In this document: positions 10,406 to 63,374 of the stretch, one piece after another
Numbering within the stretch: the first letter of the stretch is position 1
Layout of the letters: each line of letters opens with the position of its first letter
Origin: Candidatus Saccharimonadales bacterium
GTDB lineage: Bacteria > Patescibacteriota > Saccharimonadia > Saccharimonadales > 2-12-FULL-41-12
Length of the DNA stretch: 64,000 nt
Direction: 5' to 3'
Assembly: GCA_025451045.1 (NCBI GenBank)
Contig: JANWLD010000001.1
Location: forward strand, 407,468-471,467
Position numbers and translations under genes: made by a program
Notes under the pieces: generated by a model
What the model saw: the letters and a program-made list of their open reading frames with translations, nothing else
Told to the model about the DNA's origin: nothing
The model's database searches: none

Positions 10406-10411
10406 TCGTCC

Positions 10412-10510
10412 ATACTTTCATTCTAAAGGGCGCTCTTTCACCTATGAATTTCTTGCTTATGGCAGGAAATTCAAGGGAAGCGCTAGCAAACCCTTTAGAT
10501 TCGAAAGTAT
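10412..10510. repeat. 99-nt imperfect palindrome between the two transketolase subunit genes
   Basis: ATACTTTCATTCTAAAGGG...GAATTTC, a 13-nt loop, then GAAATTC...CCCTTTAGATTCGAAAGTAT. It is not related to the GTAGTGAGC family. Confidence 0.6.
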
Positions 10511-10532
10511 TCACTTTGGGAAGAGGCTATAA

Positions 10533-38015: not shown

Positions 38016-39245
38016 GTGGAGTTGGATTTTAAGCAACTAGCACAGGTAATCAAATCGATTGCCGAAGAAAAAAACTTACCGGAAGATTCGGTTAAAGAAG
38101 TGGTCGAACAGGCCTTGGCTGCCGCATATCGCAAAGATTTTGGCGACCGCGAGCAGGAGATAAGGACCGAAATGAACCTAAATACTGGCACTATAGATAT
38201 ATACATATCTAAAGACGTTGTCGAAGAAGTAGGCGATGAACGCTTTGAGATAAGTCTTGAGGACGCCAAAAAGAAGAAAAAAGATGCCAAAATTGATGAT
38301 GTAATTGAAATCCTGGAAAAACCGGAGACTTTCGGCCGTGTAGCCGCCCAAACTGCCAAGCAAGTGATTTTGCAAAGACTTCGTGAAGCCGAGCGTGAAA
38401 TCATTATGAATGAATACCAGGATAAAATTGGCACCGTAATTAACGGAGTAGTTTCCCGCGTGGAAGGCCGGCTTATCCGGTTTGAACTTGGGAAGGCTCA
38501 GGCGATAATGCCGGCCAGCGAGCAGATTCAAAACGAAAGATACCACCCCGGCCAACGGCTAAAGGTATTTTTAAAAGATGTTGAACGCGGTTTTCGCGGC
38601 CCGCAACTGGTCGTATCTCGCGGTAATACCGAGTTTATGGAATGGCTGTTTCGCGCTGAAGTGCCGGAAATGGAAAGCGACGCAGTGACTATAAAAGCAA
38701 TATCCCGTGAAGCTGGTGTCCGTAGCAAGATTGCCGTAGCCAGCACTGTGCCCGGAGTTGATCCGGTCGGCACATTTGTCGGCGGCCATGGCACCAGAGT
38801 CAATGCGGTAATGAGCGAAATCGGCGACCAGGAAAAGATAGACATTGTTGTTTGGGACGAAGACTCCAAACAGTTTATCGAAAACGCTCTAAGCCCGACC
38901 AAGGTTACAGCCGTTGAATTAGACGAGGCTAACAAAAAGGCAGTTATCAAAGTACCGGAAGACCAGCTGAGTATTGCTATCGGCAAGAACGGACAGAATG
39001 TCCGGTTGGCTAGTAAATTAACCGGTTACGAGCTGGATATAGTTTCAGAAGAAGGCGGCGATAAAACCAAACCTGAACCTGAAACAAAGGAACCGCAAGT
39101 CAGTACCAGCAAACCTTTAGGCGGCCAGAAGTTGAAGAAAAAAGAACAGCTTGAGTCAAGCTTGCTGGAAGCGATTGAAGAACACGGCGACGAAGGCGGG
39201 GAAGAAAAACCTGCCGAAGAAACTTCTGATAAAAAAGAGGACTAA
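38016..39245 (+). CDS. nusA: transcription termination/antitermination factor NusA
   Basis: N-terminal, S1 and KH1-KH2 domain order with an acidic/Lys-rich tail. GTG start with SD AAGGAG. Confidence 0.9.
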   Translation: MELDFKQLAQVIKSIAEEKNLPEDSVKEVVEQALAAAYRKDFGDREQEIRTEMNLNTGTIDIYISKDVVEEVGDERFEISLEDAKKKKKDAKIDDVIEILEKPETFGRVAAQTAKQVILQRLREAEREIIMNEYQDKIGTVINGVVSRVEGRLIRFELGKAQAIMPASEQIQNERYHPGQRLKVFLKDVERGFRGPQLVVSRGNTEFMEWLFRAEVPEMESDAVTIKAISREAGVRSKIAVASTVPGVDPVGTFVGGHGTRVNAVMSEIGDQEKIDIVVWDEDSKQFIENALSPTKVTAVELDEANKKAVIKVPEDQLSIAIGKNGQNVRLASKLTGYELDIVSEEGGDKTKPEPETKEPQVSTSKPLGGQKLKKKEQLESSLLEAIEEHGDEGGEEKPAEETSDKKED

Positions 39246-39494
39246 ATGGTCTGGCAAGATTATGTTATTGCGCTGGTCCAGATAGGGTTGGTCATTGCGC
39301 TTATTCCGACGCTTCGCGGCAAAGATAAGCCAGCCTTATCTACCAGTATCATGAACACTCTGTTGCTGGGCATCATAACATTCTGCTTTTTTACTCTTGA
39401 GTTATATTTTGCAACTTGCACAGTTCTCGCTACCGCTTTAGCATGGGCTGTCTTGGCAGTTCAGAAGATGAAACAAGAAAAGACAGAAAACTAA
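39246..39494 (+). CDS. small hydrophobic protein (82 aa)
   Basis: Starts one nt after the nusA stop. Three predicted TM segments. Confidence 0.5.
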   Translation: MVWQDYVIALVQIGLVIALIPTLRGKDKPALSTSIMNTLLLGIITFCFFTLELYFATCTVLATALAWAVLAVQKMKQEKTEN

Positions 39495-39573
39495 TATTAA
39501 GTTATATGATTGACTAAAACACAATTGTCACGTACATTAAATTAATTATAGATTTTAGGATTAACGGGGTTTT

Positions 39574-40236
39574 ATGAAGACATTTGAAAAAGCGAAGTCG
39601 GGAGCAGAGAAAATACTTAAAAATGGCGGTTTGGCCAAGGCTGGCGTGGTCGGAGCATTAATGTTGGCAGGTTGCGGCGAAGCTTCCGAGCTGGCTCAGC
39701 AGCCGCTTAAAGCAGAGAATCCTCTATCCCAATCACTGAATGATTATAGGGATAGGGTGAACCTTAGTAAAAAGGCTCGAGTAGTTCTTAACACCTGCGT
39801 GGCATGGGGGAATGTTAGCGGAGGTATAACTGTTACCCGGAATCCGGGAATTGATACTGTTCGGTCAACCGAGGGAACTTACTCGTATTTTGTGTTTGCA
39901 TATCCCGATAATGATAAGAAGTTTCCATTAATCCAGCAAAATAATGGACCCCAAGCAAGAGTGACTGAAAACGGAGATGTTTATGGGGGCGGGCCTTCAG
40001 GGTCTCTGCTAACGATTGATCTGGAAAAACAGAAAGGCTATTTAGCACACGCCACCAACCGTGCTTTGGCTGACCAACCGACTTTTGCTGATAACGGGCA
40101 GGTTTACCATACGGATGCGCAGACTGGCGTTCCGGTGATGAATACCGCAATAACAGACGGACCGTTTACCGACAAAAGAGTCAATTCTGTATGTGATGCG
40201 CTTAAAACTGGCGCTCCTATAGACCCCTTCGGTTAA
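39574..40236 (+). CDS. putative lipoprotein
   Basis: Signal peptide with lipobox LMLAGC. No other motif recognised. Confidence 0.6.
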   Translation: MKTFEKAKSGAEKILKNGGLAKAGVVGALMLAGCGEASELAQQPLKAENPLSQSLNDYRDRVNLSKKARVVLNTCVAWGNVSGGITVTRNPGIDTVRSTEGTYSYFVFAYPDNDKKFPLIQQNNGPQARVTENGDVYGGGPSGSLLTIDLEKQKGYLAHATNRALADQPTFADNGQVYHTDAQTGVPVMNTAITDGPFTDKRVNSVCDALKTGAPIDPFG

Positions 40237-40257
40237 ACCGTTAACTTAGAAACAAAG

Positions 40258-40284
40258 TTAGCACTCTTGACCATTGAGTGCTAA
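40258..40284. promoter_or_regulatory. CIRCE operator (HrcA binding site) upstream of clpC
   Basis: TTAGCACTC-TTGACCATT-GAGTGCTAA matches the consensus TTAGCACTC-N9-GAGTGCTAA exactly. TTGACC in the spacer, a 16-nt gap and TGCTATAAT (40286-40294) form a promoter. Confidence 0.85.
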
Positions 40285-40333
40285 TTGCTATAATAGTTTT
40301 AGTGTATTAAAAACCACTAGATTGGAATAATCC

Positions 40334-42817
40334 ATGCCCCCTTCAGCAGATTTTCAAGACTTTTTGAATCACTTAACTGAGAATGCTCTGGCCAGTCTGC
40401 GCCATGCGGACGGTATTGCGCGAACCAGCGGCAGTCCATATGTAGGCACTGAACATCTGTTATTGGGATTGTTGGCTCAGGAGTCATCTATCGGCGCGAA
40501 AATGCTGGATGGCGCTGGCGTAACACTCCAAAAAGCCAAACTGGCTTTGAACGTTAACCCTGCCCCAATCAGTTCGGTCGGTTCAAAGGGCCTTAGCGAA
40601 GTCGCGAAACTTACGCTTAATATGGCTTATGAGATAGCCCAGGACTTCAACCAAGAATACTGTGGAACAGAACACATATTATTCAGTATCTTAAGTCAGA
40701 AGAATGCCCGGGCCAGCGAAATTCTGCGTTCAATGGGCGTAGCGATTGAACCGTTGATTAACGAACTTGAACAGTTCCTCAATCGGCAGCAAGGCAGCGG
40801 CGGACAGCTGGGTGCCAGCCGCCGGCAAAAAAAGGGCCGCAAGACCGCGCTTGATTTTTTTGGAACCGACCTTACCGCCAAAGCCCGTCAAGGCGGGTTG
40901 GACCCGGTTATCGGCCGTGACGCACAACTTGCTAGAGTCATAACTATACTGAGCCGCAGAACCAAGAATAACCCTGTACTTATAGGAGAACCCGGTGTCG
41001 GTAAAACCGCTATAGTTGAAGGTTTGGCCGCCCGTATTATCGCCGAAGACGTACCAGACAACCTTATTGGTAAGCGGCTTATTATGCTTGATTTGGCCGG
41101 TATGATTGCCGGTACTAAATACCGCGGTGAATTCGAAGACCGGCTAAAAAAAGTCATGACCGAACTTGAACAAGACAAGAAAGCTATCGTCTTTGTTGAT
41201 GAAATTCACTTGGTAGTCGGTGCCGGTGCCGCTGAAGGCGCGATGGACGCCGGTAATATGCTCAAGCCGGCCTTGGCAAGAGGCAAAATCCAGCTTATCG
41301 GTGCAACGACTACTGTTGAATACAGCAAACATGTCGAAAAAGATGCGGCCTTGGAGCGGCGTTTCCAGCCGGTGATTGTACCGGAAGCAACCAAGACCGA
41401 AACCGTCAGTATCCTGCGCGGGCTTAGAAAACATTATGAATCATTCCATAATGTCAAAATCAGCGACGAAGTGATTGATGACACAGTCCGCTTTGCTAAG
41501 CGTTATATCAACGACCGGTATATGCCCGATAAAGCGATAGACTTGATTGATGAAGCTTCAGCGCATGTGCGTGTTGGGAAAGGCAAAACACCGCCGGAAC
41601 TAAGAAAAGCCCAAAAAGAGCTACGCTTGCTTCAAGTACGGATTGAAGATGCCGCAACCGCTGAAGATTATGAAACAGCGGCTACTCTCAAGACCAAGGC
41701 CAGTCGCTTGAGCGAAGAAATTATCAAGCTTCAAGCCAAATACAACGACGGCAAAATTATCAAGCTAACCAGCGATGACGTAGCCGAGGTAGTGGCTAGG
41801 ATTACCGGCGTGCCGGTAACCAAAGTTATCCGCAGCGAAGCCAAATATCTTTTGAATCTTGAAAAGACTTTGAGCAAATACATTATTGGCCAAAAAGAAG
41901 CAATCAAAGCTGTCGCCACGGCCGTTCGGCGCAGTCGAAGCGGTATCAGCGACAGCCGCCGGCCTATCGGCTCGTTTGTTTTCTTGGGCCCGACGGGCGT
42001 GGGCAAGACCGAATTAGCCCGGATTTTGGCCAGAGAATTCTTCGGGAGTGAAGATAATCTGGTGAAAATCGATATGTCCGAATTTGGCGAGCATCACAAC
42101 GTTTCACGATTAATGGGGGCGCCAGCTGGCTATGTCGGTTATGATGATGGCGGCCAACTGACAGACAAGATACGACGCCAACCGTACAGCTTGGTGCTAT
42201 TTGATGAGATTGAAAAGGCCCACCCGGACGTGTTTAACATGATGTTGCAAATACTTGAAGATGGCCGGCTGACCGACGGCAAAGGCCGGGCGATTGATTT
42301 TAGTAACACCATCGTGATAATGACCAGCAATATCGGCGCTGAGAAATTACAAAAAGAATCGCAGTTTGGTTTTTCTGTCAGCTCGGCCAAAGAGAAGGAA
42401 GATCTGGCCGAACTTCATGAAACCAACAAACAGAACGTATTGGATAGTTTGAAAAAAATGATGCGGCCTGAACTGCTCAATAGAATTGATAAGACAATTG
42501 TTTTTAGGGCTTTGACCAAAGCCGAAATAGCCGAAATCCTGGAATTGCAGATTAATGAGTTAAATGAACGCCTAGTCCGCCAAGGGCTGGTAGTTAAGCT
42601 TAGCGGCACTGCTAAAGACTGGTTGGTCAAAGAGGGCTATGACCCGCAAAACGGCGTACGGCCGATGCGCCGTTTGCTTCAGGAGACATTGGAAGACAGT
42701 ATCTCCGACGGTTTGCTGTCCGGTGAATATACCAAAGGCACCGTAATAAATGTTGGTGTTCGAAACGGCAAGCTGACTTTTGAGGGCAAAAAAGAAGCCG
42801 CAGCAACCATAGCTTAA
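40334..42817 (+). CDS. clpC: ATP-dependent Clp protease ATP-binding subunit ClpC
   Basis: Two Clp_N repeats, two AAA+ modules ([16 protein letters not shown]) and a UVR-like linker. Confidence 0.9.
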
Positions 42818-42850
42818 GACGCTTGTCTTGTTTATACTGTTAAGTAATTT

Positions 42851-43822
42851 ATGAAAAGTAGAAGTGCCATACGTTTGTTGGTTTTTACGGTGTTAATAGC
42901 CGGTTTGGCCGTGATTGTAGCAAATATGCAGGCTGTCAGCGATTGGTGGATGTTGCATAGTTACACTCCCGACCAGAGGGTAGTCCAGCTAGCTGACGAA
43001 ACCACCATGAAAAGCGACACGCGGCGGGTGTTTTACATCAATCATCCGCAGCTTGATGATAAATCGGAATTCAACGGACATTGCCGGACAGTGGAACAAA
43101 CCATTGTGCTGGGCTGTTTTATCGACCATGATGGGATATATTTGCTCAATGTTACTGACCCTAGGCTGGATGGAGTTGTCGAAGTAACCGCGGCTCACGA
43201 GACTTTACATGCTATGTACGCCCGCCTGGATGATGCTGAGCGGGCTAAAGTAGACAAAATGACCGCAAGTTTCTTTGCTACGCTTAATAATGAACGGATA
43301 AAAAAGACGATTGCCGGTTATAGGGCGAAAGATCCTTCTGTAGTGCCGAACGAGCTTCATTCTATTTTAGGGACTGAGGTTCGCAACCTAAGCCCGGAGC
43401 TGGAGAATTATTATAAGCAATATTTTAGCGACAGGACAAAGATAGTCGACTACTCTGATAAGTACGAACAAGTCTTCACCAGCATTGAAGTAAAAGCCAA
43501 AAGTTTTGACGACAGGCTGACCGCTTTAAAGCGCACTATAGACGCGAATGAGGCTGAAATTGAATCAAAGACCGCGGCTTTGGACAATAAACAACGGGAA
43601 CTTAACGGGCTGCGTTCAGCCGGCAATATAGATGAGTATAACCGGCAGGTACCGGTATATAATGCAATGATAAGAGATTATAACGGATTGATAAACCAGA
43701 CCAAGCTACAGATAGATGAATATAATGCGCTGCTAAATCAGCGCAATCAGCTGGTTATTCAGCAACAGCAACTGCATAAGTCTATAGACAGTAACAGTAT
43801 TAACGAAAAAAGCAGCAGATAA
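42851..43822 (+). CDS. membrane-anchored HExxH protein with C-terminal coiled coil
   Basis: N-terminal TM helix, AAHETLHAMY motif, and a Q/N-rich heptad-like C-terminus. Confidence 0.55.
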   Translation: MKSRSAIRLLVFTVLIAGLAVIVANMQAVSDWWMLHSYTPDQRVVQLADETTMKSDTRRVFYINHPQLDDKSEFNGHCRTVEQTIVLGCFIDHDGIYLLNVTDPRLDGVVEVTAAHETLHAMYARLDDAERAKVDKMTASFFATLNNERIKKTIAGYRAKDPSVVPNELHSILGTEVRNLSPELENYYKQYFSDRTKIVDYSDKYEQVFTSIEVKAKSFDDRLTALKRTIDANEAEIESKTAALDNKQRELNGLRSAGNIDEYNRQVPVYNAMIRDYNGLINQTKLQIDEYNALLNQRNQLVIQQQQLHKSIDSNSINEKSSR

Positions 43823-45169
43823 ATGCCTAAAATGAAACAAAGATATATATGCACAAACTGCGCGGCGCAGTATCCGGTTTGGTCAGGCCGTTGCAATAGT
43901 TGCGGGGAATGGAATACGCTGGAAGAAGAACCGGAAATCGTAGTCGGTAGCGGCAAGTTGAGCACAGGCAAGGCGCTTAAAGCTGTCACTACAAAAAATA
44001 TTAAACTAAAAGACCGCCAAAAAAGATTGCCGGCAGGAATCGATGATGTCGACAATGTTTTGGGCGGCGGCTTCGTGCCCGGCAGTATAACGCTGATTGC
44101 CGGACAGCCCGGAATCGGCAAAAGCACCCTATTGCTTCAGGTCGCGGCTAATGTCGCGAAAAATCAGTCAGTGCTTTATGTCAGCGGCGAAGAATCGGCG
44201 CATCAGATAGGTCTGCGCGCCCAGCGGCTGGGCGTGGCCGACTCCAAGTTAGATCTCGCTACTTCTACCAGCGCTGATGACATAGCTTCGACCATTTCTG
44301 GCGGTAAATACTCAGTTGTATTTGTTGATTCTATCCAAACCATGACAGCCAGCGCCGTTTCATCCGCGGCTGGCAGCGTAAGCCAGATTACCAATAGTAC
44401 CCACCTTATAATGAATGCCGGCAAACATACGGATACAGCAGTGATTTTGGTCGGTCATGTAACTAAAGAAGGCTCAATTGCCGGACCGAAGATATTGGAA
44501 CATGTGGTTGATGTCGTACTGAACCTGGAAGGCGATCGTTATGGCGGTTTTAAGTTACTGCGCAGTGTCAAAAATCGTTTTGGTTCCACTAACGAGGCTG
44601 GTATCTTTGAAATGCAAAATGAAGGCTTAGTCCAGGTTGAAAATCCATCTGCCAGCTTGCTGGCTGAGCGCCAAGAAAGCGACGGCTCCGTAGTACTGGC
44701 TACCATGGAAGGCATGCGGCCGATATTGGTTGAGGTCCAGGCGCTGGTCAACAAGACTTCATACGGTTATCCCAAACGTGCCGCTAGCGGCATAGATCTT
44801 AATCGCGTTAACCTGCTGGTTGCCATGCTGGAGCGCCGGACTAGATTGAATTTAGCTGACCAGGATATTTATATCAACATAGTCGGCGGTATAAAAATCA
44901 GCGAGCCGGCAGCCGATTTAGCCATTTGTATGGCAATAGGCTCGGCGGCCAAAGGCCTTCAGCTGAAAGGCAATGCCGTGGTTTACGGCGAAGTAGGCTT
45001 ATCGGGCGAAATCCGCCGGGTGAATTTCGCAGAAAAACGCATCGCCGAGGCAAAGAAGCTTGGTTTTGACACTGTTATAGGGCCAAAATCGGCTGGTAAA
45101 CCAACAGATAAACTACTAAAACCGGTTACTAATATTAAAGATGCCCTTAATTTATATTTAAAGAAATAG
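43823..45169 (+). CDS. radA: DNA repair protein RadA
   Basis: C4 zinc finger CTNCAAQYPVWSGRCNSCGEW, Walker A GQPGIGKST, KNRFG motif and a Lon-like C-terminal domain. Confidence 0.95.
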   Translation: MPKMKQRYICTNCAAQYPVWSGRCNSCGEWNTLEEEPEIVVGSGKLSTGKALKAVTTKNIKLKDRQKRLPAGIDDVDNVLGGGFVPGSITLIAGQPGIGKSTLLLQVAANVAKNQSVLYVSGEESAHQIGLRAQRLGVADSKLDLATSTSADDIASTISGGKYSVVFVDSIQTMTASAVSSAAGSVSQITNSTHLIMNAGKHTDTAVILVGHVTKEGSIAGPKILEHVVDVVLNLEGDRYGGFKLLRSVKNRFGSTNEAGIFEMQNEGLVQVENPSASLLAERQESDGSVVLATMEGMRPILVEVQALVNKTSYGYPKRAASGIDLNRVNLLVAMLERRTRLNLADQDIYINIVGGIKISEPAADLAICMAIGSAAKGLQLKGNAVVYGEVGLSGEIRRVNFAEKRIAEAKKLGFDTVIGPKSAGKPTDKLLKPVTNIKDALNLYLKK

Positions 45170-45176
45170 GATAAAC

Positions 45177-45866
45177 ATGAAAACTATAGATATTATTCAA
45201 ACTATACTGTTGCTGGCTATAGCTATGCTGGTAATTTTCAAACAATCGGCAGTTAACTTCGGGCGAAAAAGTAAAAAACTTATTTTGGACAGCTGCGCAT
45301 TGATTGACGGCCGGATAGTCGAGCTGGTAAATGCCGGATTTATCCAGAGAGAGCTTGTTATACCGCGCTTTGTATTAAAGGAATTACAATTACTGGCCGA
45401 CGGCAGCGATTCCCAGAAACGCGAACGGGCCCGTTTTGGCCTTGATATTGCCAACGCCCTGCAAGCTAATAACAACTGCAAGGTCACTATAAATACCCAG
45501 AGTTTTTCAGAAGTTAAAGCAACTGATGACAAGCTGGTGTTACTCGCCAAAAAGATTTCAGCGGACCTATATACTACTGATTACAATCTTAACAAAGTCG
45601 CCACCGTAGAAGGCGTGAAAGTGCTGAATATAAACGAATTGGCGCTCACCATGCGCCCGCAGATTTTGCCGGGAGAAAAAAAGAAGGTAAAGATAGTTCA
45701 AAAGGGCAGCGGGCGGAACCAAGGCGTCGGTTATCTTGAAGACGGCACAATGGTGGTCGTCGAAAATGCTATACGATTAATCGGTAAAACGGTTGAAGTA
45801 GAAGTCAGCCGTTATCATCAGACCGAATCCGGCAAGATGTTATTCGCTGGCCTAGCCAAAGAATAG
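45177..45866 (+). CDS. PIN/TRAM domain protein (YacL-like)
   Basis: N-terminal TM helix, PIN domain (LDSCALIDGR) and C-terminal TRAM (GKTVEVEVSRY). Confidence 0.75.
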   Translation: MKTIDIIQTILLLAIAMLVIFKQSAVNFGRKSKKLILDSCALIDGRIVELVNAGFIQRELVIPRFVLKELQLLADGSDSQKRERARFGLDIANALQANNNCKVTINTQSFSEVKATDDKLVLLAKKISADLYTTDYNLNKVATVEGVKVLNINELALTMRPQILPGEKKKVKIVQKGSGRNQGVGYLEDGTMVVVENAIRLIGKTVEVEVSRYHQTESGKMLFAGLAKE

Positions 45867-54331: not shown

Positions 54332-55624
54332 ATGAAAAAGGGAGTTGAACCCGCAATTTTGAAAGGAACCAGGGATTTTCTGCCCGCTGATATGGCGCAG
54401 AGGAATGAGGTTTTGGCCAAAATAAAAAACACTTTTGAAAAATTTGGTTACCAACAGATAGAAACACCTATCTTAAGCTATGCCGAAACGATATTAGGCA
54501 AAGAAAAAGAGAACAGTCAGAAGATGGCTTATTCGTTCAAAGATTATGGCGAGCGCGATATTGCCTTGCCGTTTGACTTGACCATGCCTTTTTCCCGGTT
54601 TGTTGCGGCTAACTGGCGGGATCTGCCGATACCGTTCAAGCGCTTCCAAATCCAGCGGGTATGGCGCGCCGAACGGCCGCAACGCGGGCGTCTGCGTGAA
54701 TTTTACCAATGCGACGTAGATATCATCGGTTCAAACGAGCTGGTCTGCGAGGCTGAAATTGCCAAATTGATTACTCAGGTTTTCGATGAGCTAAAAATCA
54801 AAGATATAAAAATACGCGTAAATTCGCGGAAACTACTAAATGAAATATTGACTGGGTTCGGTGTCGAAAAAGATAACCTGATACCAGCTATACGGCTGAT
54901 AGATAAACTGGACAAAATCGACAACACGGCGGTAGTAGAAGGGCTAAAGAAGCTAGGTATAAAAAACGCCGCCGAGATTATCGGGGTACTCAAAACGGAT
55001 AAAGACAACCAAGCCACCCTGAAACAGCTTGAAGCATACGATACGACGGACTTGCAGGAATTTTTGCGTTTGAGCCGTGAATTCGGAGTTGATGAAACGC
55101 GATTGGTACTTGATCCCGGCCTGGCACGAGGGCTGGATTATTACACCGGAATAATCTTTGAAGTTGTTTCAAGCGATGAAAGCCTTGGTACTATCTGCGC
55201 CGGCGGCCGTTATGATGATTTGTCGGCGATGTTCTCAAGCAAGGAATTCTCCGGTATCGGCGTATCCTTTGGCTTCGAGCGAATCATGCTGTTTATGCAG
55301 GAAAACGGGCTTATTGCCGACGGCAAGCCAAGTTCCAGAGTATTGATAACGGTTTTTGACGAAGGTTCGCTGGATGGGTCGATAAAAATCTACAAATCAC
55401 TGCTCAAAGCCAGTGTTCCGGCGGAGATTTATCTGGATGAAACCAACCTCTCCAAACAGTTTAAATATGCTGATAAAAAGAATATACCGTTTGTCGTAGT
55501 GCAAGGCCCGGATGAGCTTCGCGACAACGAGGTGATTGTACGAAGAATGAGTAATGGCAACCAAAAGAAAATTCCTGCCAGCCAGCTTGCTTCCTACATA
55601 GCAGGTTATTATGAAGCGAACTAA
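54332..55624 (+). CDS. hisS: histidine--tRNA ligase
   Basis: Class II motif 2 (RVWRAERPQRGRLREFYQCDVDIIG), GGRYDDL, motif 3 (GVSFGFERI) and a complete C-terminal anticodon-binding domain. Confidence 0.85.
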   Translation: MKKGVEPAILKGTRDFLPADMAQRNEVLAKIKNTFEKFGYQQIETPILSYAETILGKEKENSQKMAYSFKDYGERDIALPFDLTMPFSRFVAANWRDLPIPFKRFQIQRVWRAERPQRGRLREFYQCDVDIIGSNELVCEAEIAKLITQVFDELKIKDIKIRVNSRKLLNEILTGFGVEKDNLIPAIRLIDKLDKIDNTAVVEGLKKLGIKNAAEIIGVLKTDKDNQATLKQLEAYDTTDLQEFLRLSREFGVDETRLVLDPGLARGLDYYTGIIFEVVSSDESLGTICAGGRYDDLSAMFSSKEFSGIGVSFGFERIMLFMQENGLIADGKPSSRVLITVFDEGSLDGSIKIYKSLLKASVPAEIYLDETNLSKQFKYADKKNIPFVVVQGPDELRDNEVIVRRMSNGNQKKIPASQLASYIAGYYEAN

Positions 55625-56237
55625 TATCCGAATAGCCATCCAAAAATCCGGCCGGTTGAGAGCAAAGAGCGAGAAGCTGTTAAATGAATGGGGCATTGAC
55701 TGTGAAGCCGATAATAAAGGCCGGTTGGTCATTCCCTGCAACGGAGGCGAATTTGAGATTTTGTTTGTACGTTATGGCGATATTCCGGAGTATGTAGCCA
55801 GCGGGGTGGCTGATTTCGGTATCGTCGGCCAGAATATCTTGTATGAAGACCGGTTTAATGTTGGCGTGGTCAAGCAGTTGGGCTTTGGCGAATGCCGTTT
55901 GATTGTTGCCGCTCCAAAGCGTTCATCGATAAAAACGGTGGCGGATTTGGAAGGCGAACGCATAGCGACATCTTACCCGAACAGCTTGCGAAAATTCCTG
56001 AAAAAAGAGCGTTTGGGCGCGACTATCATCAAAATCCGCGGCGGAGTGGAAGCCGCTCCGGCCATAGGCTTGGCTGACGCCGTGTGCGACCTTACCCAGA
56101 CGGGTAAGACTTTGGACGCCAACGGACTGAAAATAATCGCTACAGTGCTGGAATCCCAGGCTGTATTGATTGAATCCAAATTCTTATCGGCCAAAGCCGA
56201 AAAGTTCAAAGAAAAAGTGTTACAGGCCGCATCATGA
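55611..56237 (+). CDS. hisG: ATP phosphoribosyltransferase, short form
   Basis: 208-aa HisG catalytic core without the C-terminal regulatory domain. The ATG overlaps the hisS 3' end by 14 nt. Confidence 0.9.
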   Translation: MKRTNIRIAIQKSGRLRAKSEKLLNEWGIDCEADNKGRLVIPCNGGEFEILFVRYGDIPEYVASGVADFGIVGQNILYEDRFNVGVVKQLGFGECRLIVAAPKRSSIKTVADLEGERIATSYPNSLRKFLKKERLGATIIKIRGGVEAAPAIGLADAVCDLTQTGKTLDANGLKIIATVLESQAVLIESKFLSAKAEKFKEKVLQAAS

Positions 56238-56833
56238 TAGCCGTTGTTGATTATGACGCCGGTAATATCGGCTCGGTTGCCAATGCCTTAAAGCGTTTGG
56301 GGGCTAAGTTTGAAGTTACTTCCGATACCGACACAATACGCAAAGCCGACGGAGTAATCTTCCCCGGCCAAGGCAGAGCTGGGCCGGCTTTGAAGTCGCT
56401 TCAAAAATCCGGCCTGGACAAGCTGTTGCCAAGTTTAAAACAACCGTTTCTTGGAATTTGCCTAGGGATGCAGTTAATGGTTGAAAAACTGGAAGAAGAT
56501 AATCAAACCGGGCTGGGAATCGTTCCGGGCAAGTGCGAACTTTTTAAAGATATCAGTCCGGTGCCGCACATGGGCTGGAACAAAGTTAATATTGTGCAGG
56601 ACTCCAAGCTCCTTGCTGGCCTTAAAAGCGGTTCTTACCAGTATTTTGTGCACAGTTACGCTGTTAAAACCGATAAGGAGTTCACTGTTGCGGTTACCGA
56701 TTATGGCGGAGAATTTGCCAGCGCGGTTAACAGAGATAACTTTTATGGCGTCCAATTTCACCCTGAGAAGTCAGCAGAAGCCGGCGAGCAGATACTTAAT
56801 AATTTTTTAATAATCTGTGGAGAGAAAAGGTGA
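56234..56833 (+). CDS. hisH: imidazole glycerol phosphate synthase, glutaminase subunit
   Basis: Class I GATase with GICLGMQL and HSY..., then FHPEKS. Confidence 0.9.
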   Translation: MIAVVDYDAGNIGSVANALKRLGAKFEVTSDTDTIRKADGVIFPGQGRAGPALKSLQKSGLDKLLPSLKQPFLGICLGMQLMVEKLEEDNQTGLGIVPGKCELFKDISPVPHMGWNKVNIVQDSKLLAGLKSGSYQYFVHSYAVKTDKEFTVAVTDYGGEFASAVNRDNFYGVQFHPEKSAEAGEQILNNFLIICGEKR

Positions 56834-57540
56834 TCGTTTATCCCGCTATTGATTTGATAAATCGTAAAGCTGTGCGTTTGGAGCAAGGCAATTACGACAA
56901 AAAGACAGAATACTCTGATAACCCTATTGAGATAGCCCAAAAATTTGAGTCTGAAGGCGCTGAGTATATCCACATTGTTGACTTGGACGGCGCCAAAACC
57001 AAACGGCCCGTTAATATGGACGTGATTAAAGACATTGCAAAATCCATTAACATTCCTGTTCAGGTTGGCGGCGGTATCCGTACGCTACGCTCGGTCGAAG
57101 AGTTGCTTGAATATGCCAAAAGAGTGATTATCGGTACGATTGCGGTGACCGAACCGGAGGTGTTAGAACAGATGGTTAAAAAAATCGGCTCCGACAAGAT
57201 AGTCGTATCTGTTGACTACAAGAATGGATCGCCAGCTATAAACGGCTGGTTGGAAGAAGTTAAGTTAACCACAGAGGCCTTGCAGGTCCGTCTGAGCGGT
57301 TTAGGTATCCGAACAGTCATAGTTACCGATACGGATAAAGACGGCATCTTAAGCGGTCCTAACATTAAACTGATGAAACAGTGGAAACAAGCCGGGTTTG
57401 ATACGATCTGCGCCGGAGGGGTAACAACTGTCAATGATATAGCAGAACTTGCTGCAGCCAATATCGATGGTGCGATAATTGGCAAGGCGCTTTATGAAGA
57501 TAGGATAACTTTAAAGGAAGCTATAGATGCTGGCGAATAG
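56830..57540 (+). CDS. hisA: ProFAR isomerase
   Basis: YPAIDL...VRL.QG, HIVDLDGA and GGGIR motifs. GTG start overlaps the hisH stop. Confidence 0.9.
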   Translation: MIVYPAIDLINRKAVRLEQGNYDKKTEYSDNPIEIAQKFESEGAEYIHIVDLDGAKTKRPVNMDVIKDIAKSINIPVQVGGGIRTLRSVEELLEYAKRVIIGTIAVTEPEVLEQMVKKIGSDKIVVSVDYKNGSPAINGWLEEVKLTTEALQVRLSGLGIRTVIVTDTDKDGILSGPNIKLMKQWKQAGFDTICAGGVTTVNDIAELAAANIDGAIIGKALYEDRITLKEAIDAGE

Positions 57541-58384
57541 GATCATACCGTGCATGGACATCAAAGACGGCCGGGTGGTCAAGGGCACCCATTTCAAAGA
57601 TTTGGTTGATAGCGGCGATCCGCTAGAGCTTGCTAAGAAATATGCTGACCAAGGCGCCGATGAGCTAGTACTTCTGGATATCGTCGCTACTGTCGAGGAG
57701 CGCAAAAATCGGGCCGGATTGGTCCGGGCTGTTGCCGAGGCCATTGCCATTCCTTTTAGCGTTGGCGGCGGCGTAAGCGAGCTATCCCACATCAACGAAC
57801 TTTTAAATGCCGGGGCAGATAAAGTATCTATCGGCTCGGCCGCAGTGACTGATGCGGGCTTTGTTAAAAAAGCCTGTGACAGATTCGGCTCCCAAGCGAT
57901 AATTATCTCCCTTGACCCGAAAAGAGTTATTGATAGCGGCAATCCATTTGCTTCAACAGAGCGCTCTACAGGTGAGCCTACGGCTCAGCCTGTGGCGCTA
58001 GCAGACTCAATTGAAACAAACAGATTACCGCTTTTAAAGTGGGATGTTTATATAAAAGGCGGCCGTGAAAATACCGGAGTTGATGTGATAGAATTTGCCA
58101 AAAAAATGGAAAAATTGGGCGTAGGCGAACTTTTAGTCAATAGCCTTGACCGCGACGGTACTAAAAAAGGCTTTGACATAGAGCTTTTAGATAAAATATC
58201 AAAATCTGTGAATATTCCGGTGATTGCCAGTAGTGGTGCCGGCAGGATCGATGATTTTGTGGAAGTCTTTAAAAGAACCGGTGTCACGGCGGCATTGGGC
58301 GCGTCTGTGTTTCACGGGCGGCAATTTACAGTTGGGGACGTAAAGGCTAGACTAAAACTAGAGGGAATAGAGGTCAGACAATGA
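57527..58384 (+). CDS. hisF: imidazole glycerol phosphate synthase, cyclase subunit
   Basis: RIIPCMDIKDGRVVKG, DRDGTKKGFD and ASSGAG motifs. It has a loop about 30 aa longer than compact HisF proteins. Confidence 0.9.
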   Translation: MLANRIIPCMDIKDGRVVKGTHFKDLVDSGDPLELAKKYADQGADELVLLDIVATVEERKNRAGLVRAVAEAIAIPFSVGGGVSELSHINELLNAGADKVSIGSAAVTDAGFVKKACDRFGSQAIIISLDPKRVIDSGNPFASTERSTGEPTAQPVALADSIETNRLPLLKWDVYIKGGRENTGVDVIEFAKKMEKLGVGELLVNSLDRDGTKKGFDIELLDKISKSVNIPVIASSGAGRIDDFVEVFKRTGVTAALGASVFHGRQFTVGDVKARLKLEGIEVRQ

Positions 58385-58710
58385 GCCAAAAAACGAATAA
58401 ATTGGATTTTGCTAAAAACGGCGGATTGGTACCGGCAATTATCCAGGACAACGAATCCGACATGGTTTATATGCTGGGATACATGAACGAGGAAGCGTAC
58501 GCCAAAACTAAACAGTCTGACTGGGTACATTTCTGGAGCCGCAGTAAAAACCGAATTTGGATGAAGGGCGAAGAGTCCGGCAACAAACTAAAAGTCGTTT
58601 CTATATTTGAAGATTGCGACCAAGACACATTGCTTATAAAAGTAAAACTACACGGCGAAGCGGTTTGCCATACCGGACATCTGAGTTGTTTTTATGAAGA
58701 AATTAAATAA
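58381..58710 (+). CDS. hisI: phosphoribosyl-AMP cyclohydrolase
   Basis: GLVPAIIQD, WSRSKNRIWMKGEESGN and DCDQDTLL...CHTG motifs. Confidence 0.9.
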   Translation: MSQKTNKLDFAKNGGLVPAIIQDNESDMVYMLGYMNEEAYAKTKQSDWVHFWSRSKNRIWMKGEESGNKLKVVSIFEDCDQDTLLIKVKLHGEAVCHTGHLSCFYEEIK

Positions 58711-58719
58711 GGAGAAAGC

Positions 58720-58995
58720 ATGACATTGGACGAACTGTATAACCTAATTGAAGATAGAAAAAAGAATAAACCAACAGGCTCATATGTGGCATCTTTGTTT
58801 GAAGAAGGGCAAGACCGCATAACCCAGAAAGTCGGCGAAGAAGCGGTTGAAGTAGTGATTGCCGCTAACAGAGGCCAAAAAACCGAACTCGTAGCGGAAA
58901 TGGCCGACCTTTGGTTCCACTGCTTGATTTTATTATCATCCGCAGGTATTAAGCCCGAAGAAGTATTGGCTGAACTCGAAAAACGCAAGAAGTAA
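58720..58995 (+). CDS. hisE: phosphoribosyl-ATP pyrophosphatase
   Basis: SYVASLFEEG...KVGEEAVEVVIA...ELVAEMADLWFHCLILL (MazG-like HisE). Confidence 0.9.
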   Translation: MTLDELYNLIEDRKKNKPTGSYVASLFEEGQDRITQKVGEEAVEVVIAANRGQKTELVAEMADLWFHCLILLSSAGIKPEEVLAELEKRKK

Positions 58996-59034
58996 CACTG
59001 GTTTATCTGAGCCCATCTGTTATACTGGTTTGCT

Positions 59035-60321
59035 ATGCAAACGAGTATAACTAAGATTTCTGAGACTAAAGTAAAGTTGGTTATCAAAGCTACGGCGGAA
59101 GAGTTGTTGCCTGCCAAAAATAAAGTCTTGGCCAAACTCGGCAAAGAAGTTAAGCTAGCCGGTTTTAGAGCTGGCAAAGCTCCGCTGGAACTTCTTGAAA
59201 AAAACATCGACCAAAACCGACTGCAAACTGAATTTTTGGACGAAGCCATGACCGCGCTTTATACCCAAGCCGCTGAAGCTGAAAAAATCCGGCCGGTTGC
59301 CGGGCCGCAGGTAACGGTCAAAAAATTTGTGCCGTTCACTACGCTCGAATTTGAAATCACTACAGATGTTGTCGGAAAGATAAAATTAGCTAATTATAAG
59401 AGTATAAAGCTTGCCAAAACCAAGCCGGAAGTGGCAGCCAAAGACGTAAACGGCGTTTTAGATTCGCTAAAGCTCCGGCTGGCTGAGAAGACTGACGTGG
59501 ACCGGGCCGCTAAAGCCGACGACGAAGCGTTAATAGATTTCAAGGGCGTGGACGACAAAGGCGCGCCGATAAACGGCGCGGACGGCAAAGATTATCCGCT
59601 AGTTCTTGGCAGTAACAAATTCATACCGGGCTTTGAGGACAACCTAATCGGGCTTAAAGCAGGCGATGAAAAGACATTTGAACTGACTTTTCCAAAAGAT
59701 TACGGCGTAAAGGCTCTGGCGAATAAAAAGGTCAAATTTAGCGTTAACGTCAAGAAAATCCAGGAAATGAGCGAACCAAAGCTGGATGATGCTTTCGCGG
59801 CTAAAGTCGGTCCTTTCAAAACGCTCAAAGACCTCAAAGACGATATCAAAAAACAGCTTCTCACTGAAAAGCAAAGCGAAGTTAATCGAGATTTTGCAAA
59901 TAATCTGATAGAAAAAATTATCGATAAAAGCATATTGTCCCTACCGGATTCAATGATTGAACATCAGGCCGAACATAATTTTGAAGAGTTGAAGCGCAAT
60001 CTTGTTTATCGCGGGCAGACCCTTCAGGAGTTCTTGCAAGCCGAAGGTACCACCGAAGAAAAGTATAAAAAAGACATTCTATGGCCGCAGGCCGAAAAAC
60101 AAGTAAAAGGCAGCTTGGTTTTAGCTGAAATCGCTGAAGCCGAAGTGATATCGGTTACACCGGAGGAATTGGAAATCCGCCTCCAGATATTAAAGGGGCA
60201 GTACAAAGATCCGCAGATGCAGGCCGAACTTGATAAACCCGAATCCCGCCAGGATATCGCGTCTCGAATGCTTACCGAAAAAGTGCTTATAAAACTAGAA
60301 TCTTACACAGCCATACATTAG
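59035..60321 (+). CDS. tig: trigger factor
   Basis: N-terminal ribosome-binding GFRAGKAP motif, central FKBP domain and a C-terminal helical domain. Confidence 0.9.
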   Translation: MQTSITKISETKVKLVIKATAEELLPAKNKVLAKLGKEVKLAGFRAGKAPLELLEKNIDQNRLQTEFLDEAMTALYTQAAEAEKIRPVAGPQVTVKKFVPFTTLEFEITTDVVGKIKLANYKSIKLAKTKPEVAAKDVNGVLDSLKLRLAEKTDVDRAAKADDEALIDFKGVDDKGAPINGADGKDYPLVLGSNKFIPGFEDNLIGLKAGDEKTFELTFPKDYGVKALANKKVKFSVNVKKIQEMSEPKLDDAFAAKVGPFKTLKDLKDDIKKQLLTEKQSEVNRDFANNLIEKIIDKSILSLPDSMIEHQAEHNFEELKRNLVYRGQTLQEFLQAEGTTEEKYKKDILWPQAEKQVKGSLVLAEIAEAEVISVTPEELEIRLQILKGQYKDPQMQAELDKPESRQDIASRMLTEKVLIKLESYTAIH

Positions 60322-60377
60322 TTTAGACAAAAATATAAATATATGGTAATATAGGTTAGGTAAATTAATAAAATATC

Positions 60378-60731
60378 ATGGACGATTCACCTTCCCCGGA
60401 ACAAGATCCATTCCATCGCAGTATTAGGCTGCTTCACATTTGCCCTAAGTGTGACAGTAAATTAGTACAGCCGGAAAAATGGGAGCCTGCAGGTAGTAGT
60501 AAGGGTAGCTGGCAGATATGGCTAAGGTGTCCGGATTGTGAACATAGGACCGAAGGCGTGTTCGGCGCAGAGGTCATTGATGCCTACGACGAAGAGTTGG
60601 ATGATGGTACCGCCGAGCTTAACTACGTGCTAAAAGACCTTGAGAGGAAAAGTATGACTAACCTTGTTGAGGTTTTTGCGGTAGCTCTTGAAACAGACTT
60701 GATTCAGGCGGATGACTTTCGGCCTCGTTAA
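60378..60731 (+). CDS. hypothetical C4 zinc-ribbon protein (117 aa)
   Basis: CPKC...(26 aa)...CPDC followed by an acidic C-terminal half. Confidence 0.5.
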   Translation: MDDSPSPEQDPFHRSIRLLHICPKCDSKLVQPEKWEPAGSSKGSWQIWLRCPDCEHRTEGVFGAEVIDAYDEELDDGTAELNYVLKDLERKSMTNLVEVFAVALETDLIQADDFRPR

Positions 60732-60843
60732 AATTTATTTGACAGGACAGAGTACTTTTAAGTATAAAAGACAGCCAATGGCAATAGGAGAAATCGAAAA
60801 ACAAGACGGACACAGAAAAGTGGAAGTTGTCCGATAATTAATC

Positions 60844-61185
60844 ATGAAACTTGGTAAAACTAGCGAAACCGAATCAGGGCACAGATGTTTTTCGGTAAAT
60901 GCCGATAAAGGCATGGAGTTTGTTGGAGTCAACCTTGAAGGTATTAAAGTTACGACTGACTCTATTACTTTATCCGGCCGGGCTATCGGCCACCCGCCAA
61001 AAACCGCAAACATTGACACCCGCCAGGTTGGTCGGATAACCCGCAAAGCTCTTGAAGGATGGCTCAAGCAAGTGCCAAATAACGAATTGCATGTCTCAGA
61101 AGACGTAATCGTCGATTTGGGTAACGGCCATTATATCTGCGGCTCAGGCGACGGTTCCCTGCACGAAGCTCCAAAAGCCGATTAG
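60844..61185 (+). CDS. hypothetical protein (113 aa)
   Basis: ORF whose TAG stop (61183-61185) lies inside the left arm of the clpP CIRCE. No motif recognised. Confidence 0.4.
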   Translation: MKLGKTSETESGHRCFSVNADKGMEFVGVNLEGIKVTTDSITLSGRAIGHPPKTANIDTRQVGRITRKALEGWLKQVPNNELHVSEDVIVDLGNGHYICGSGDGSLHEAPKAD

Positions 61186-61208
61186 CACTCAACCTTGACG
61201 AGTGCTAA
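61182..61208. promoter_or_regulatory. CIRCE operator (HrcA binding site) upstream of clpP
   Basis: TTAGCACTC-AACCTTGAC-GAGTGCTAA is a perfect consensus. TTGACG (61195-61200), a 17-nt gap and TAAAAT (61218-61223) place the TSS at about the clpP ATG. Confidence 0.85.
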
Positions 61209-61230
61209 TTCGTTATATAAAATAAAGAAC

Positions 61231-61860
61231 ATGAGTGAACCGAAAAAATCTATTCTTATCCCGACCGTTATTGAGCAGGAAGGTCGGGTTGAGCGGGCTT
61301 ATGATATCTATAGCCGCCTGCTGAAAGACAATATTATTTTCCTCGGCACCGATGTAAACGAGCATACAGCTAATTTGGTTGTCGCCCAGTTGTTGTTTTT
61401 GGCTAATGAAAACCCGAATAAAGACATCAAGCTTTATATCAATAGTCCCGGCGGCAGTGTTTATGACGCCTTGGCGATTTATGACACTATGCAGTTTGTT
61501 AAAAATGACATCCAGACTGTCGGTATCGGTATCCAGGCCAGCGCGGCGGCATTTTTGCTAAGCAGCGGCACAAAGGGTAAACGCTCAATCTTGGAACACG
61601 CCTCGGTGATGATACACCAGCCGTCCAGCGGTACCCGTGGTAAAGTCACCGACCAGGAAATCGATTTGCGTGAAGCTCTTCGAGTTAAAAAACTGCTTGA
61701 AGAAATAATGGCCAAAAACACCGGCCAAAAACCTGACAAGATTCACCATGATATGGAACGCGACCTTTGGATGACAGCCGATGAGGCCAAGAAGTATGGC
61801 CTTGTCGACGAAATCATCACCACGAGCCCAGCAGCACGGCCAAAAACCTCCAAAAAATAA
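61231..61860 (+). CDS. clpP: ATP-dependent Clp protease proteolytic subunit
   Basis: Start moved to ATG 61231. [21 protein letters not shown], a [11 protein letters not shown] Ser site and MIHQP are present. Confidence 0.9.
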
Positions 61861-61940
61861 TCCATTTACAATAAAATCCTTACGCTTGCAAACAGACTGT
61901 CTTGATGATATTGTCGGAAGAATTAAGGAGTAATTATTTA

Positions 61941-63374
61941 ATGGCAGATTTAAACCCTGGTGAAGTTTTAGAACGTTTTAGAGAAGATTTGGACAGAGTA
62001 CACCAGGTCGAAGATAGTTGCGGCACAATCGAAGCGGATGCGCTAAATGCTGCTAGTGCTGCTTCCGAATTTGCTGAAAGTGCTAAAAGTATAATGGATA
62101 GCGCTACGAGAGATACGGAATCCGTTGTAAAACCGGCATTAGCAGCTATAGAAGAAGCTGCTGGCCGAAATCCCAGTAGCGATGAAGCGATAAGGGCTAT
62201 CATGTCCGTCAAAGGCAAGACAGATGAAGAGATAGAAGCCCATTTTGAGCATTTCGAGGCAACCAGTGAAGAAGAACAGCCGGTAATCGTCATAGGCGGC
62301 AGCGAGAAAGGACTTGGACTTGAAGGACTAATATCAGTTACTTATGGGCGCACAGCTACCAAAAACGAAATCAGATCTTTTCTCAAGACCTATACGGGTC
62401 ACGGAACGCATGTTGATAGCAGGAAAAGGGGGCTAGGGGAGCGTTATATTGGTATACTGGCGAAATCCCAAAGGGCATTCTCAGTCAGTACATCAGATGA
62501 GTATCCTATTGATTTATTTGCGGATCAACCAACTGCTGAGAGATTTTCTTTGATTTCAGCAAATTCTAATATGGCTGCCCATCCTTTTGAAGAGATACAT
62601 TTTGCTGGAAATGCGGTAGAGGTCAGAGATATGACTGAATCAATAGTAGGCGCTTATAGGAAACCGTCTGTAGCGGATGCTATGGCAGTCCAAAGTCTTG
62701 GCCTTCCAACCATGGTGGCATATGGAGAAGATGCCGTTTTAGAACTTTCGGCAAGAATAGGCGAAACAAATCCTCAGAGCAGAATTCTTGCCAGACGATG
62801 CATAGAAGGACTTGGCATAGACATGGAATATATTGCCGATGAGTTACCTGATGAAGACATTCCTAATCTATCTGAAAAGATAGTTTCAGACTTTGGTAAC
62901 CATTTGTTCGTAAAGTTTGACGAAGCTTTAACCGAGTTTTTGCGCCATGGCGGAACTCCCGCTGCTGATCATATTAGAACGTTGGCTTTTTTGGCTCCTA
63001 TGCAAAAGGCGATAGGTTATGCGCCGCCTACTGTACTTGATAAAATGGTTGGAGAATTGTCATCTCAAATAAACGTGAACTATTCTTTTGTAGAAGGTGT
63101 AGAAGTGACGGTTGCGGCAGTTAAGCCTTTGTCACCAACTGAAGCATCGGAGACTAAGTCAGTAAAAAGTGAATTGGAAAAGTTAATGGATAGAATGGAA
63201 GAATTAGGTATAGCCTATGTCCCTAAAGATGGCCTTGATATGGAAATGTTAGCAAGAAGGGTAGAAAGACCAGCAGTAAGAAAAGAGCTGGCAAATACAT
63301 CAAAAATACACTTTGCGAAAAGAGATGATCTTAAGGTATGTGTACGAGCCTTAACTCAAGAAGACCAAAATTAA
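61941..63374 (+). CDS. hypothetical acidic protein (477 aa)
   Basis: Start moved to ATG 61941 (SD AAGGAG at 61925-61930). No P-loop or other recognisable motif. Confidence 0.6.
   Translation: MADLNPGEVLERFREDLDRVHQVEDSCGTIEADALNAASAASEFAESAKSIMDSATRDTESVVKPALAAIEEAAGRNPSSDEAIRAIMSVKGKTDEEIEAHFEHFEATSEEEQPVIVIGGSEKGLGLEGLISVTYGRTATKNEIRSFLKTYTGHGTHVDSRKRGLGERYIGILAKSQRAFSVSTSDEYPIDLFADQPTAERFSLISANSNMAAHPFEEIHFAGNAVEVRDMTESIVGAYRKPSVADAMAVQSLGLPTMVAYGEDAVLELSARIGETNPQSRILARRCIEGLGIDMEYIADELPDEDIPNLSEKIVSDFGNHLFVKFDEALTEFLRHGGTPAADHIRTLAFLAPMQKAIGYAPPTVLDKMVGELSSQINVNYSFVEGVEVTVAAVKPLSPTEASETKSVKSELEKLMDRMEELGIAYVPKDGLDMEMLARRVERPAVRKELANTSKIHFAKRDDLKVCVRALTQEDQN

Follow-up and report, generated by a model that had tools for sequence, protein, structure and literature searches.

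A 64,000-nt stretch of the genome of a Candidatus Saccharimonadales bacterium (assembly GCA_025451045.1, contig JANWLD010000001.1, positions 407,468 to 471,467; hereafter the window) carries clpP, the gene of the peptidase ClpP, directly behind a perfect CIRCE (the inverted repeat that controls the expression of chaperones), the presumed binding site of the repressor HrcA. The organism belongs to the Saccharibacteria (TM7), a lineage of the candidate phyla radiation (CPR). Operator, promoter hexamers and the start codon, which has no Shine-Dalgarno (SD) sequence before it, follow one another closely at this locus:

61182..61208, no strand: CIRCE operator and presumed HrcA site, TTAGCACTC-AACCTTGAC-GAGTGCTAA, a perfect consensus with an orthologous site in relatives
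61195..61200, + strand: -35 hexamer TTGACG (promoter scan), formed by spacer positions 5-9 and the first right-arm base (register A)
61218..61223, + strand: -10 hexamer TAAAAT (promoter scan), 17 nt past the -35
61229..61231, + strand: predicted transcription start, 5' untranslated region of 0-2 nt, from promoter geometry (6-8 nt past the -10)
61231..61860, + strand: clpP coding sequence, 209 aa, ATG start, no SD (Pfam, NCBIfam)

The left arm of the operator, TTAGCACTC, occupies positions 61182-61190, the spacer, AACCTTGAC, positions 61191-61199 and the right arm, GAGTGCTAA, positions 61200-61208. All 18 of the 18 arm bases match the consensus TTAGCACTC-N9-GAGTGCTAA, the spacer is exactly 9 nt long, and 22 nt separate the end of the repeat from the clpP ATG. 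A search of the whole window allowing up to three mismatches returned this site and only one other, at 40258-40284, with 0 matches expected from 100 shuffles of the window. For comparison we used the 80 closest ClpP-encoding loci (L001-L080) in a collection of species-representative genomes, nearly all of them metagenome-assembled genomes of Saccharibacteria/Saccharimonadales with 74-92% amino-acid identity; 79 of these have upstream DNA and, together with the window, give 80 sites. A CIRCE precedes clpP in all 79 related loci. Among the 80 sites, 30 show no mismatch to the consensus, 28 show one, 21 two and a single site three, and the differences are nearly all symmetric changes of outer arm bases that lead to YTRGCACTC...GAGTGCYAR. 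The inner arm bases, GCACTC and GAGTGC, are identical in 76-80 of the 80 loci, whereas the 10 nt upstream of the repeat hold at most 0.25 bit, i.e., behave as random flank. Near-invariant arms within a random flank are what one expects of an operator that is bound by a protein and strongly selected, and sequence, position and conservation together support the view that the clpP site is a genuine, selected operator of the HrcA-CIRCE family. Folded as RNA, the palindrome forms a hairpin of -15.9 kcal/mol (z = -3.2). An Rfam scan of 60200-62000 (E ≤ 1) found no known structured RNA, and a role of the hairpin as intrinsic terminator of the upstream open reading frame (ORF) was rejected because it lacks a U-tract and the + strand terminator scan lists no terminator there.

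The pair TTGACG/TAAAAT is the best sigma-70-like match in the 3.2 kb between 58900 and 62100, with 10 of 12 bases matching. TTGAC stands within the spacer, on the clpP strand, in all 80 loci, and it does so in two registers; four of the 39 register-B loci have the near-identical TTGCA or TTGAT instead. In register A, to which the window and 40 further loci belong (41 in all), it fills spacer positions 5-9 and runs into the first G of the right arm; in register B (39 loci) it fills positions 1-5. The remaining four spacer positions vary freely. When the best TAnnnT after the repeat was located independently of the -35, it began 9 nt past the right arm in 32 of the 41 register-A loci and 5-6 nt past it in 33 of the 39 register-B loci. 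The two hexamers thus shift jointly by about 4 nt, which is good evidence that both are functional, and these comparisons support the assignment of the clpP CIRCE spacer as the carrier of the -35 of the clpP promoter. An earlier note on this DNA, made from the letters alone, had described a second perfect CIRCE of the window (the first being that of clpC), with TTGACG astride the junction of spacer and right arm and TAAAAT 17 nt beyond it; each element was found again as described.

The ORF at 61231-61860 is identified as ClpP by Pfam CLP_protease (4.8e-75) and by NCBIfam NF001368 (289 bits, cutoff 249), and the N-terminus read from ATG 61231 aligns with that of relatives. An alternative start at TTG 61195, giving a 221-aa ORF, was rejected: this TTG is the -35 itself, and the extension is unconserved and interrupted by stop codons in relatives. 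In the window, TAAAAT is followed by aaagaac and then the ATG, a gap of 7 nt that places the first T of the -10 13 nt before the start codon, and none of the tetramers GGAG, GAGG, AGGA or AAGG occurs in the 20 nt ahead of ATG 61231. Across the 80 loci the gap separating the -10 from the clpP ATG has a bimodal length distribution. A short class of 50 loci has an in-frame ATG 6-10 nt past the -10 (first-pass counts: 7 nt in 24 loci, 6 nt in 12, 8 nt in 9, 9 nt in 4 and 10 nt in 1), with an SD-like tetramer in just 4, and in the long class AAGG, GAGG or GGAG stands at the right distance in 27 of 27 loci with a leader longer than 14 nt. Two loci for which the script called a 2-nt gap (L040 and L070) are SD-led by eye and were corrected in the counts; a close relative (L006) has an 11-nt gap and no SD. 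Such an either/or of short gap and SD is what two alternative modes of initiation predict. From this comparison the clpP mRNA of the window is probably leaderless, and promoter geometry would place its transcription start on the first base of the ATG or 1-2 nt earlier, in line with the earlier proposal of an SD-less clpP transcribed from about its start codon. On a rough neighbour-joining tree built from Tig and ClpP (73 taxa), promoter register and leader state each change about 18 times, so both have switched repeatedly.

Leaderless-like arrangements were also sought elsewhere in the window. A strict scan (TTGNNN, 16-18 nt, TANNNT, 5-9 nt, ATG, ORF of at least 80 aa) returned only clpP and a gene at 52340, and a looser scan for the -10 alone placed a -10-like hexamer 6-9 nt before 10 of 59 starts where about 2.3 were expected. 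Other starts with such a hexamer are 5263 (- strand), 11509, 15277, 22886, 29793 (- strand), 35079 (- strand), 49008 (tyrS) and 52340. The upstream neighbour of clpP in 76 of the 80 loci is tig, and it shows a similar arrangement:

59035..60321, + strand: tig (trigger factor), Pfam Trigger_N, FKBP_C and Trigger_C
60844..61185, + strand: lineage-specific 113-aa ORF with its TAG stop in the CIRCE left arm, codon usage best in its own frame

The window tig has an extended -10, TGtTATACT (59018-59026), that ends 8 nt short of the start codon. In 60 of the 63 loci used for this comparison, TGnTAnnnT ends 8-9 nt before the tig ATG, nearly always without an SD, and by its upstream sequence tig looks leaderless as well. 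The gap between tig and clpP (60322-61181 in the window) is a variable slot that ranges from about 80 nt to 1.6 kb in the window and L001-L007 and holds unrelated ORFs or none in relatives. In the window it contains the 113-aa ORF and a second small ORF (60378-60731, 117 aa) that carries CxxC...CxxC motifs. The codon usage of both is coding-like, and neither has a homologue in the 80 related loci or a Pfam or NCBIfam family. The earlier note had pointed to the stop codon of the 113-aa ORF inside the left arm; the TAG does lie there, at 61183-61185, yet this is trivial, because the CIRCE consensus itself includes TAG and, in relatives (L001, L002 and L006), ORFs of no relation end at the same triplet. 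The region downstream of clpP (61861-63374) holds, in place of clpX, a 477-aa ORF with a good SD (AAGGAG) that matches neither a Pfam nor an NCBIfam family; in L001, L004 and L005, too, clpP is followed by a homologue of this ORF, at about 30% identity. The scan showed no terminator separating it from clpP, so it may be co-transcribed. Upstream of tig, seven tightly packed ORFs on the same strand (54332-58995) form a candidate histidine-biosynthesis operon by eye, which would be unusual for a Saccharibacterium; parts of it are shared by L001 and L005 only. Its last two ORFs (58381-58710 and 58720-58995) resemble HisI and HisE by eye.

The other perfect CIRCE of the window lies ahead of clpC:

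40258..40284, no strand: second perfect CIRCE, spacer positions 1-6 reading TTGACC (register B), then TATAAT
40334..42817, + strand: clpC, 827 aa, ClpC-type AAA+ unfoldase (Pfam Clp_N, AAA, AAA_lid_9, AAA_2 and ClpB_D2-small)

A ClpB profile matches this protein in two separate segments, part of the middle domain being absent, and an FGF tripeptide at about residues 678-680 stands where ClpC proteins carry the ClpP-docking loop. A CIRCE is found again ahead of clpC in Saccharibacteria-like metagenome contigs with the synteny nusA-clpC-unknown-radA-PIN/TRAM. In the window, 38016-45866 holds nusA, a 220-aa unknown, the CIRCE, clpC, a 323-aa unknown, radA and a PIN/TRAM gene (YacL-like), and the order nusA-clpC-radA is kept in the Saccharibacteria-like contigs L085, L168, L177 and L196. 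This order is similar to that of the Firmicutes cluster clpC-radA-...-yacL but without ctsR, mcsA and mcsB: none of the three was found upstream of clpC, where the window has an ORF without Pfam or NCBIfam family and relatives have nusA directly. No CtsR box (tandem RGTCADN heptads) was found near clpP or clpC, and the search of the window gave only two one-mismatch matches, both inside genes (44846 and 53639) and at chance level. Control of clpP or clpC by CtsR, which in Firmicutes usually regulates both (class III heat shock), was therefore rejected. The earlier note had credited the two clp genes with an identical operator design. Both do carry perfect promoter-embedded CIRCEs, but the registers differ, with TTGAC at spacer positions 1-5 for clpC and 5-9 for clpP.

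A plausible reader of these sites exists in the phylum. The HrcA encoded on contig L176 is one of a large family of proteins, about 236 aa in length and thousands in number, and NCBI assigns some of these to Candidatus Saccharibacteria. The L176 protein is recognised by the Pfam profiles HrcA and HrcA_DNA-bdg, and its winged helix-turn-helix (wHTH), including QPHTSAGRVPTDKGYRFY, aligns with residues 14-92 of Thermotoga maritima HrcA (1STZ), whereas two internal deletions remove about 90-100 residues in total relative to the canonical 353-aa protein. Short forms of about 228-245 aa with conserved wHTH and C-terminal motifs were seen in Saccharibacteria and other CPR lineages (L176, L172, L088 and L201 at 10001-10708). 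On the saccharibacterial contig L201, a perfect register-B CIRCE and a second, degenerate one precede hrcA-grpE-dnaK-dnaJ, and a groES behind a perfect register-A CIRCE (L186) encodes a protein 100% identical to an NCBI Saccharibacteria GroES. With the same promoter-embedded CIRCE at the hrcA operon and at groES, the regulon appears to be the classical chaperone set extended to clpC and clpP, rather than one centred on proteolysis as the earlier note had it. In RNA sequencing of TM7x co-cultures, clpB and clpP change together (bioRxiv 10.1101/2022.03.25.485537), the only hint at regulation of this kind; that paper mentions neither transcription starts nor leaderless mRNAs nor HrcA for TM7x.

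The occurrence of promoter-embedded CIRCEs beyond these loci was surveyed in metagenomes by scanning for CIRCEs with TTGAC anywhere in a spacer of 5-13 nt. All 120 sites recovered have a spacer of 9 nt, with TTGAC in register (4,0) at 51 sites, (0,4) at 39, (2,2) at 20, (1,3) at 6 and (3,1) at 4. The genes downstream were:

hsp20: 29 of 120 sites
hrcA: 18 of 120 sites
groES/EL: 12 of 120 sites
dnaK: 11 of 120 sites
clpC: 9 of 120 sites
clpB: 7 of 120 sites
clpP: 4 of 120 sites
rpoH: 3 of 120 sites
dnaJ: 2 of 120 sites
unassigned or too short: 25 of 120 sites

This spread across many metagenomic lineages indicates that the promoter-in-operator design is common and restricted neither to clp genes nor to Saccharibacteria. 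Contigs from gut and fermentation samples carry hsp20 (29) and clpB (7) behind a perfect CIRCE with TTGAC in register A, TATAAC or TATAAT, and long SD-led leaders (among them L082, L104, L105, L107, L109-L111, L114, L116, L121, L125 and L127; L103, L129, L130, L166 and L170). Tandem CIRCEs occur at dnaK or hrcA operons, where the perfect promoter-embedded site is followed after about 20-25 nt by a weaker TTGGCACTC-N9-GAGTGCTAA or a more degenerate copy in the leader (L083, L134, L135, L144, L146, L150, L162 and L180; L201 at 9923-9999). In L118, L120 and L199, an RpoH-like protein of the sigma-70 family lies behind a perfect CIRCE whose TTGAC sits centrally, in register (2,2); a CIRCE at rpoH is known from some proteobacteria (PMC545781).

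Taken together, the clpP locus can be read as a 27-bp HrcA operator fused with the clpP promoter into one compact unit of 49 bp. Folded, active HrcA bound to both arms would cover the -35; RNA polymerase could then not bind, and clpP would be repressed. In other bacteria, the activity of HrcA depends on free GroEL. If the same dependence holds here, heat or misfolding would fill the chaperones with unfolded proteins, HrcA would be released and the promoter would fire, with transcription starting on the first base of the clpP start codon or no more than 2 nt away and the resulting leaderless mRNA being translated without a Shine-Dalgarno sequence. With one repressor for clpC, hrcA-grpE-dnaK-dnaJ, groES and clpP, unfoldase, peptidase and chaperones would rise together. 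We consider it likely that HrcA acts in this way, occluding the embedded -35 and, under proteotoxic stress, releasing a leaderless clpP mRNA alongside clpC and the chaperones.

Several observations weigh against this interpretation and lend themselves to other explanations. The terminator scan found no intrinsic terminator on the + strand between tig and clpP, so read-through transcripts containing the CIRCE hairpin could also exist. One may thus suppose that clpP is expressed mainly by read-through from tig or the small ORFs, with the CIRCE serving as a roadblock or, like that in the 5' untranslated region of Bacillus heat-shock operons, as a hairpin of a leadered transcript, and with TTGACG/TAAAAT not being the functional promoter. 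The computed fold of the palindrome would suit such a role, and in Mycoplasma pneumoniae the tig promoter drives lon across an intervening CIRCE (PMC7737663). Against this, every one of the 80 spacers has TTGAC on the clpP strand, the -10 tracks its register, and the ATG is fixed 6-10 nt past the -10 in 50 loci, with SD sequences only where leaders are long. A read-through mRNA would moreover offer the clpP AUG without an SD, and the genes between tig and clpP vary among relatives while the CIRCE-promoter unit is constant. We regard predominant read-through as quite improbable.

The 7-nt gap after the -10 also fits a leader of 0-2 nt as well as a strictly leaderless start, and the enrichment of -10-like hexamers before other starts of the window is only moderate and confounded by AT-rich intergenic DNA. 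Promoter and operator could be as described while the mRNA is not functionally leaderless, owing to an earlier transcription start or another start codon and to SD-independent initiation on a short A-rich leader. The 11-nt gap without SD in L006 is consistent with this, and the usual gap of 8 nt at tig would permit a leader of 1-3 nt there. A leader of 0-3 nt, however, is too short for an SD and amounts to a leaderless start, the alignment of N-terminal residues begins at the clpP ATG, and the strict alternation of short gap and SD is predicted by two initiation modes; an in-frame ATG at that position in every short-gap locus points the same way, a weak test in that the start-calling script favoured ATG. 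We consider a functional short leader unlikely. A further difficulty for control by HrcA is that hrcA was not found among the 38 larger ORFs of the window scanned against Pfam or NCBIfam, which cover all ORFs in the canonical HrcA size range (315-361 aa) but leave about 20 ORFs unscanned, several of them near 236 aa in size; its presence in this genome would accordingly be deduced from relatives. The saccharibacterial HrcA is, besides, an unusual short form with two internal deletions, and the palindrome might be bound by a different regulator or be a conserved structural DNA element with no stress role. Against this stand the exact match to the CIRCE consensus, the conservation of the wHTH, including QPHTSAGRVPTDKGYRFY, with the crystallised T. 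maritima protein, the classical autoregulatory layout of hrcA behind its own CIRCE, and the fact that all other targets are heat-shock genes, and we deem such an alternative very improbable. Repression by HrcA at an operator that embeds the promoter of a leaderless clpP mRNA thus remains our preferred reading.

The system can be compared with better-known ones. HrcA-CIRCE (class I) regulation was described for the dnaK and groE operons of Bacillus subtilis (Zuber & Schumann 1994 and Mogk et al. 1997, as cited in PMC3192767 and PMC7737663). The saccharibacterial sites share with it the identical 9-N9-9 repeat, an HrcA with conserved wHTH in the phylum, an autoregulated hrcA-grpE-dnaK-dnaJ layout and groES as a target. 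In B. subtilis the CIRCE lies downstream of the promoter, between transcription start and start codon, and is transcribed. The clpP operator, in contrast, contains the -35 and lies outside the predicted mRNA, which would exclude an RNA-level role of the CIRCE for the leaderless transcript. Unlike in Bacillus, where they are CtsR targets, clpP and clpC are among the targets here, and unlike canonical HrcA the repressor has only about 236 aa, with about 90-100 internal residues missing. Among the closest precedents are the genome-reduced Mollicutes, in which the HrcA regulon of M. pneumoniae and M. gallisepticum comprises lon, clpB, dnaK, dnaJ and groESL (PMC7737663, PMC4245973) and HrcA is nearly the sole stress regulator, controlling an AAA+ protease along with chaperones. 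The M. pneumoniae order tig-CIRCE-lon parallels tig-CIRCE-clpP; the protease, however, is ClpP/ClpC instead of Lon, and clpP has its own in-operator promoter and a predicted leaderless mRNA, whereas lon is said to be expressed from the tig promoter. Control of clpP by HrcA, here predicted, has a precedent in Streptococcus salivarius, where clpP is under dual regulation by CtsR and HrcA (Chastanet & Msadek 2003, J Bacteriol 185:683, as cited in PMC3842655). Unlike there, no CtsR box lies near clpP or clpC and no ctsR, mcsA or mcsB upstream of clpC, from which HrcA appears to be the sole regulator, and the arrangement extends through the phylum. Leaderless genes of bacteria are marked by TANNNT about 12 bp before the start codon in Actinobacteria and Deinococcus-Thermus (PMC3160421, PMC3898074). 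The clpP locus resembles these in its -10 hexamer 6-8 nt before an ATG that lacks an SD, and differs in its lineage and in the merger of a leaderless promoter with a repressor operator. Full-text literature searches found no paper on HrcA/CIRCE or leaderless genes in Saccharibacteria.

Control of proteases by HrcA is thus known already from Mollicutes and some streptococci, and the understanding of HrcA and CIRCE themselves is unchanged. New are the phylum, the universal CIRCE at clpP (79 of 79 related loci), which is met again at clpC, the seeming lack of CtsR, and the fusion of operator, promoter and apparently leaderless start within 49 bp. Hardly any work exists on how Saccharibacteria and other CPR bacteria regulate their genes. 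Together, hrcA-grpE-dnaK-dnaJ, groES, clpC and clpP provide a concrete, testable regulon. Some Saccharibacteria can now be genetically manipulated, and the minimal promoter-operator unit could serve as a stress-inducible expression cassette. The split of one orthologous gene into leaderless and SD-led forms behind the same operator-promoter further offers a natural series for studying how modes of translation initiation interconvert. On a broader view, which we hold tentatively and rate at slightly less than an even chance, the shortened HrcA would be the single master regulator of DnaK/GrpE/DnaJ, GroES/EL and ClpC-ClpP in Saccharibacteria and perhaps more widely in the CPR, taking the role of CtsR and acting through a fused module of about 49 bp that combines operator, -35, -10 and leaderless AUG. 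Leaderless initiation would then be a major, phylum-wide mode of expression, as the counts for tig (60 of 63 loci) and clpP (50 of 80) suggest, and clpP would have switched to and from SD-led initiation many times.

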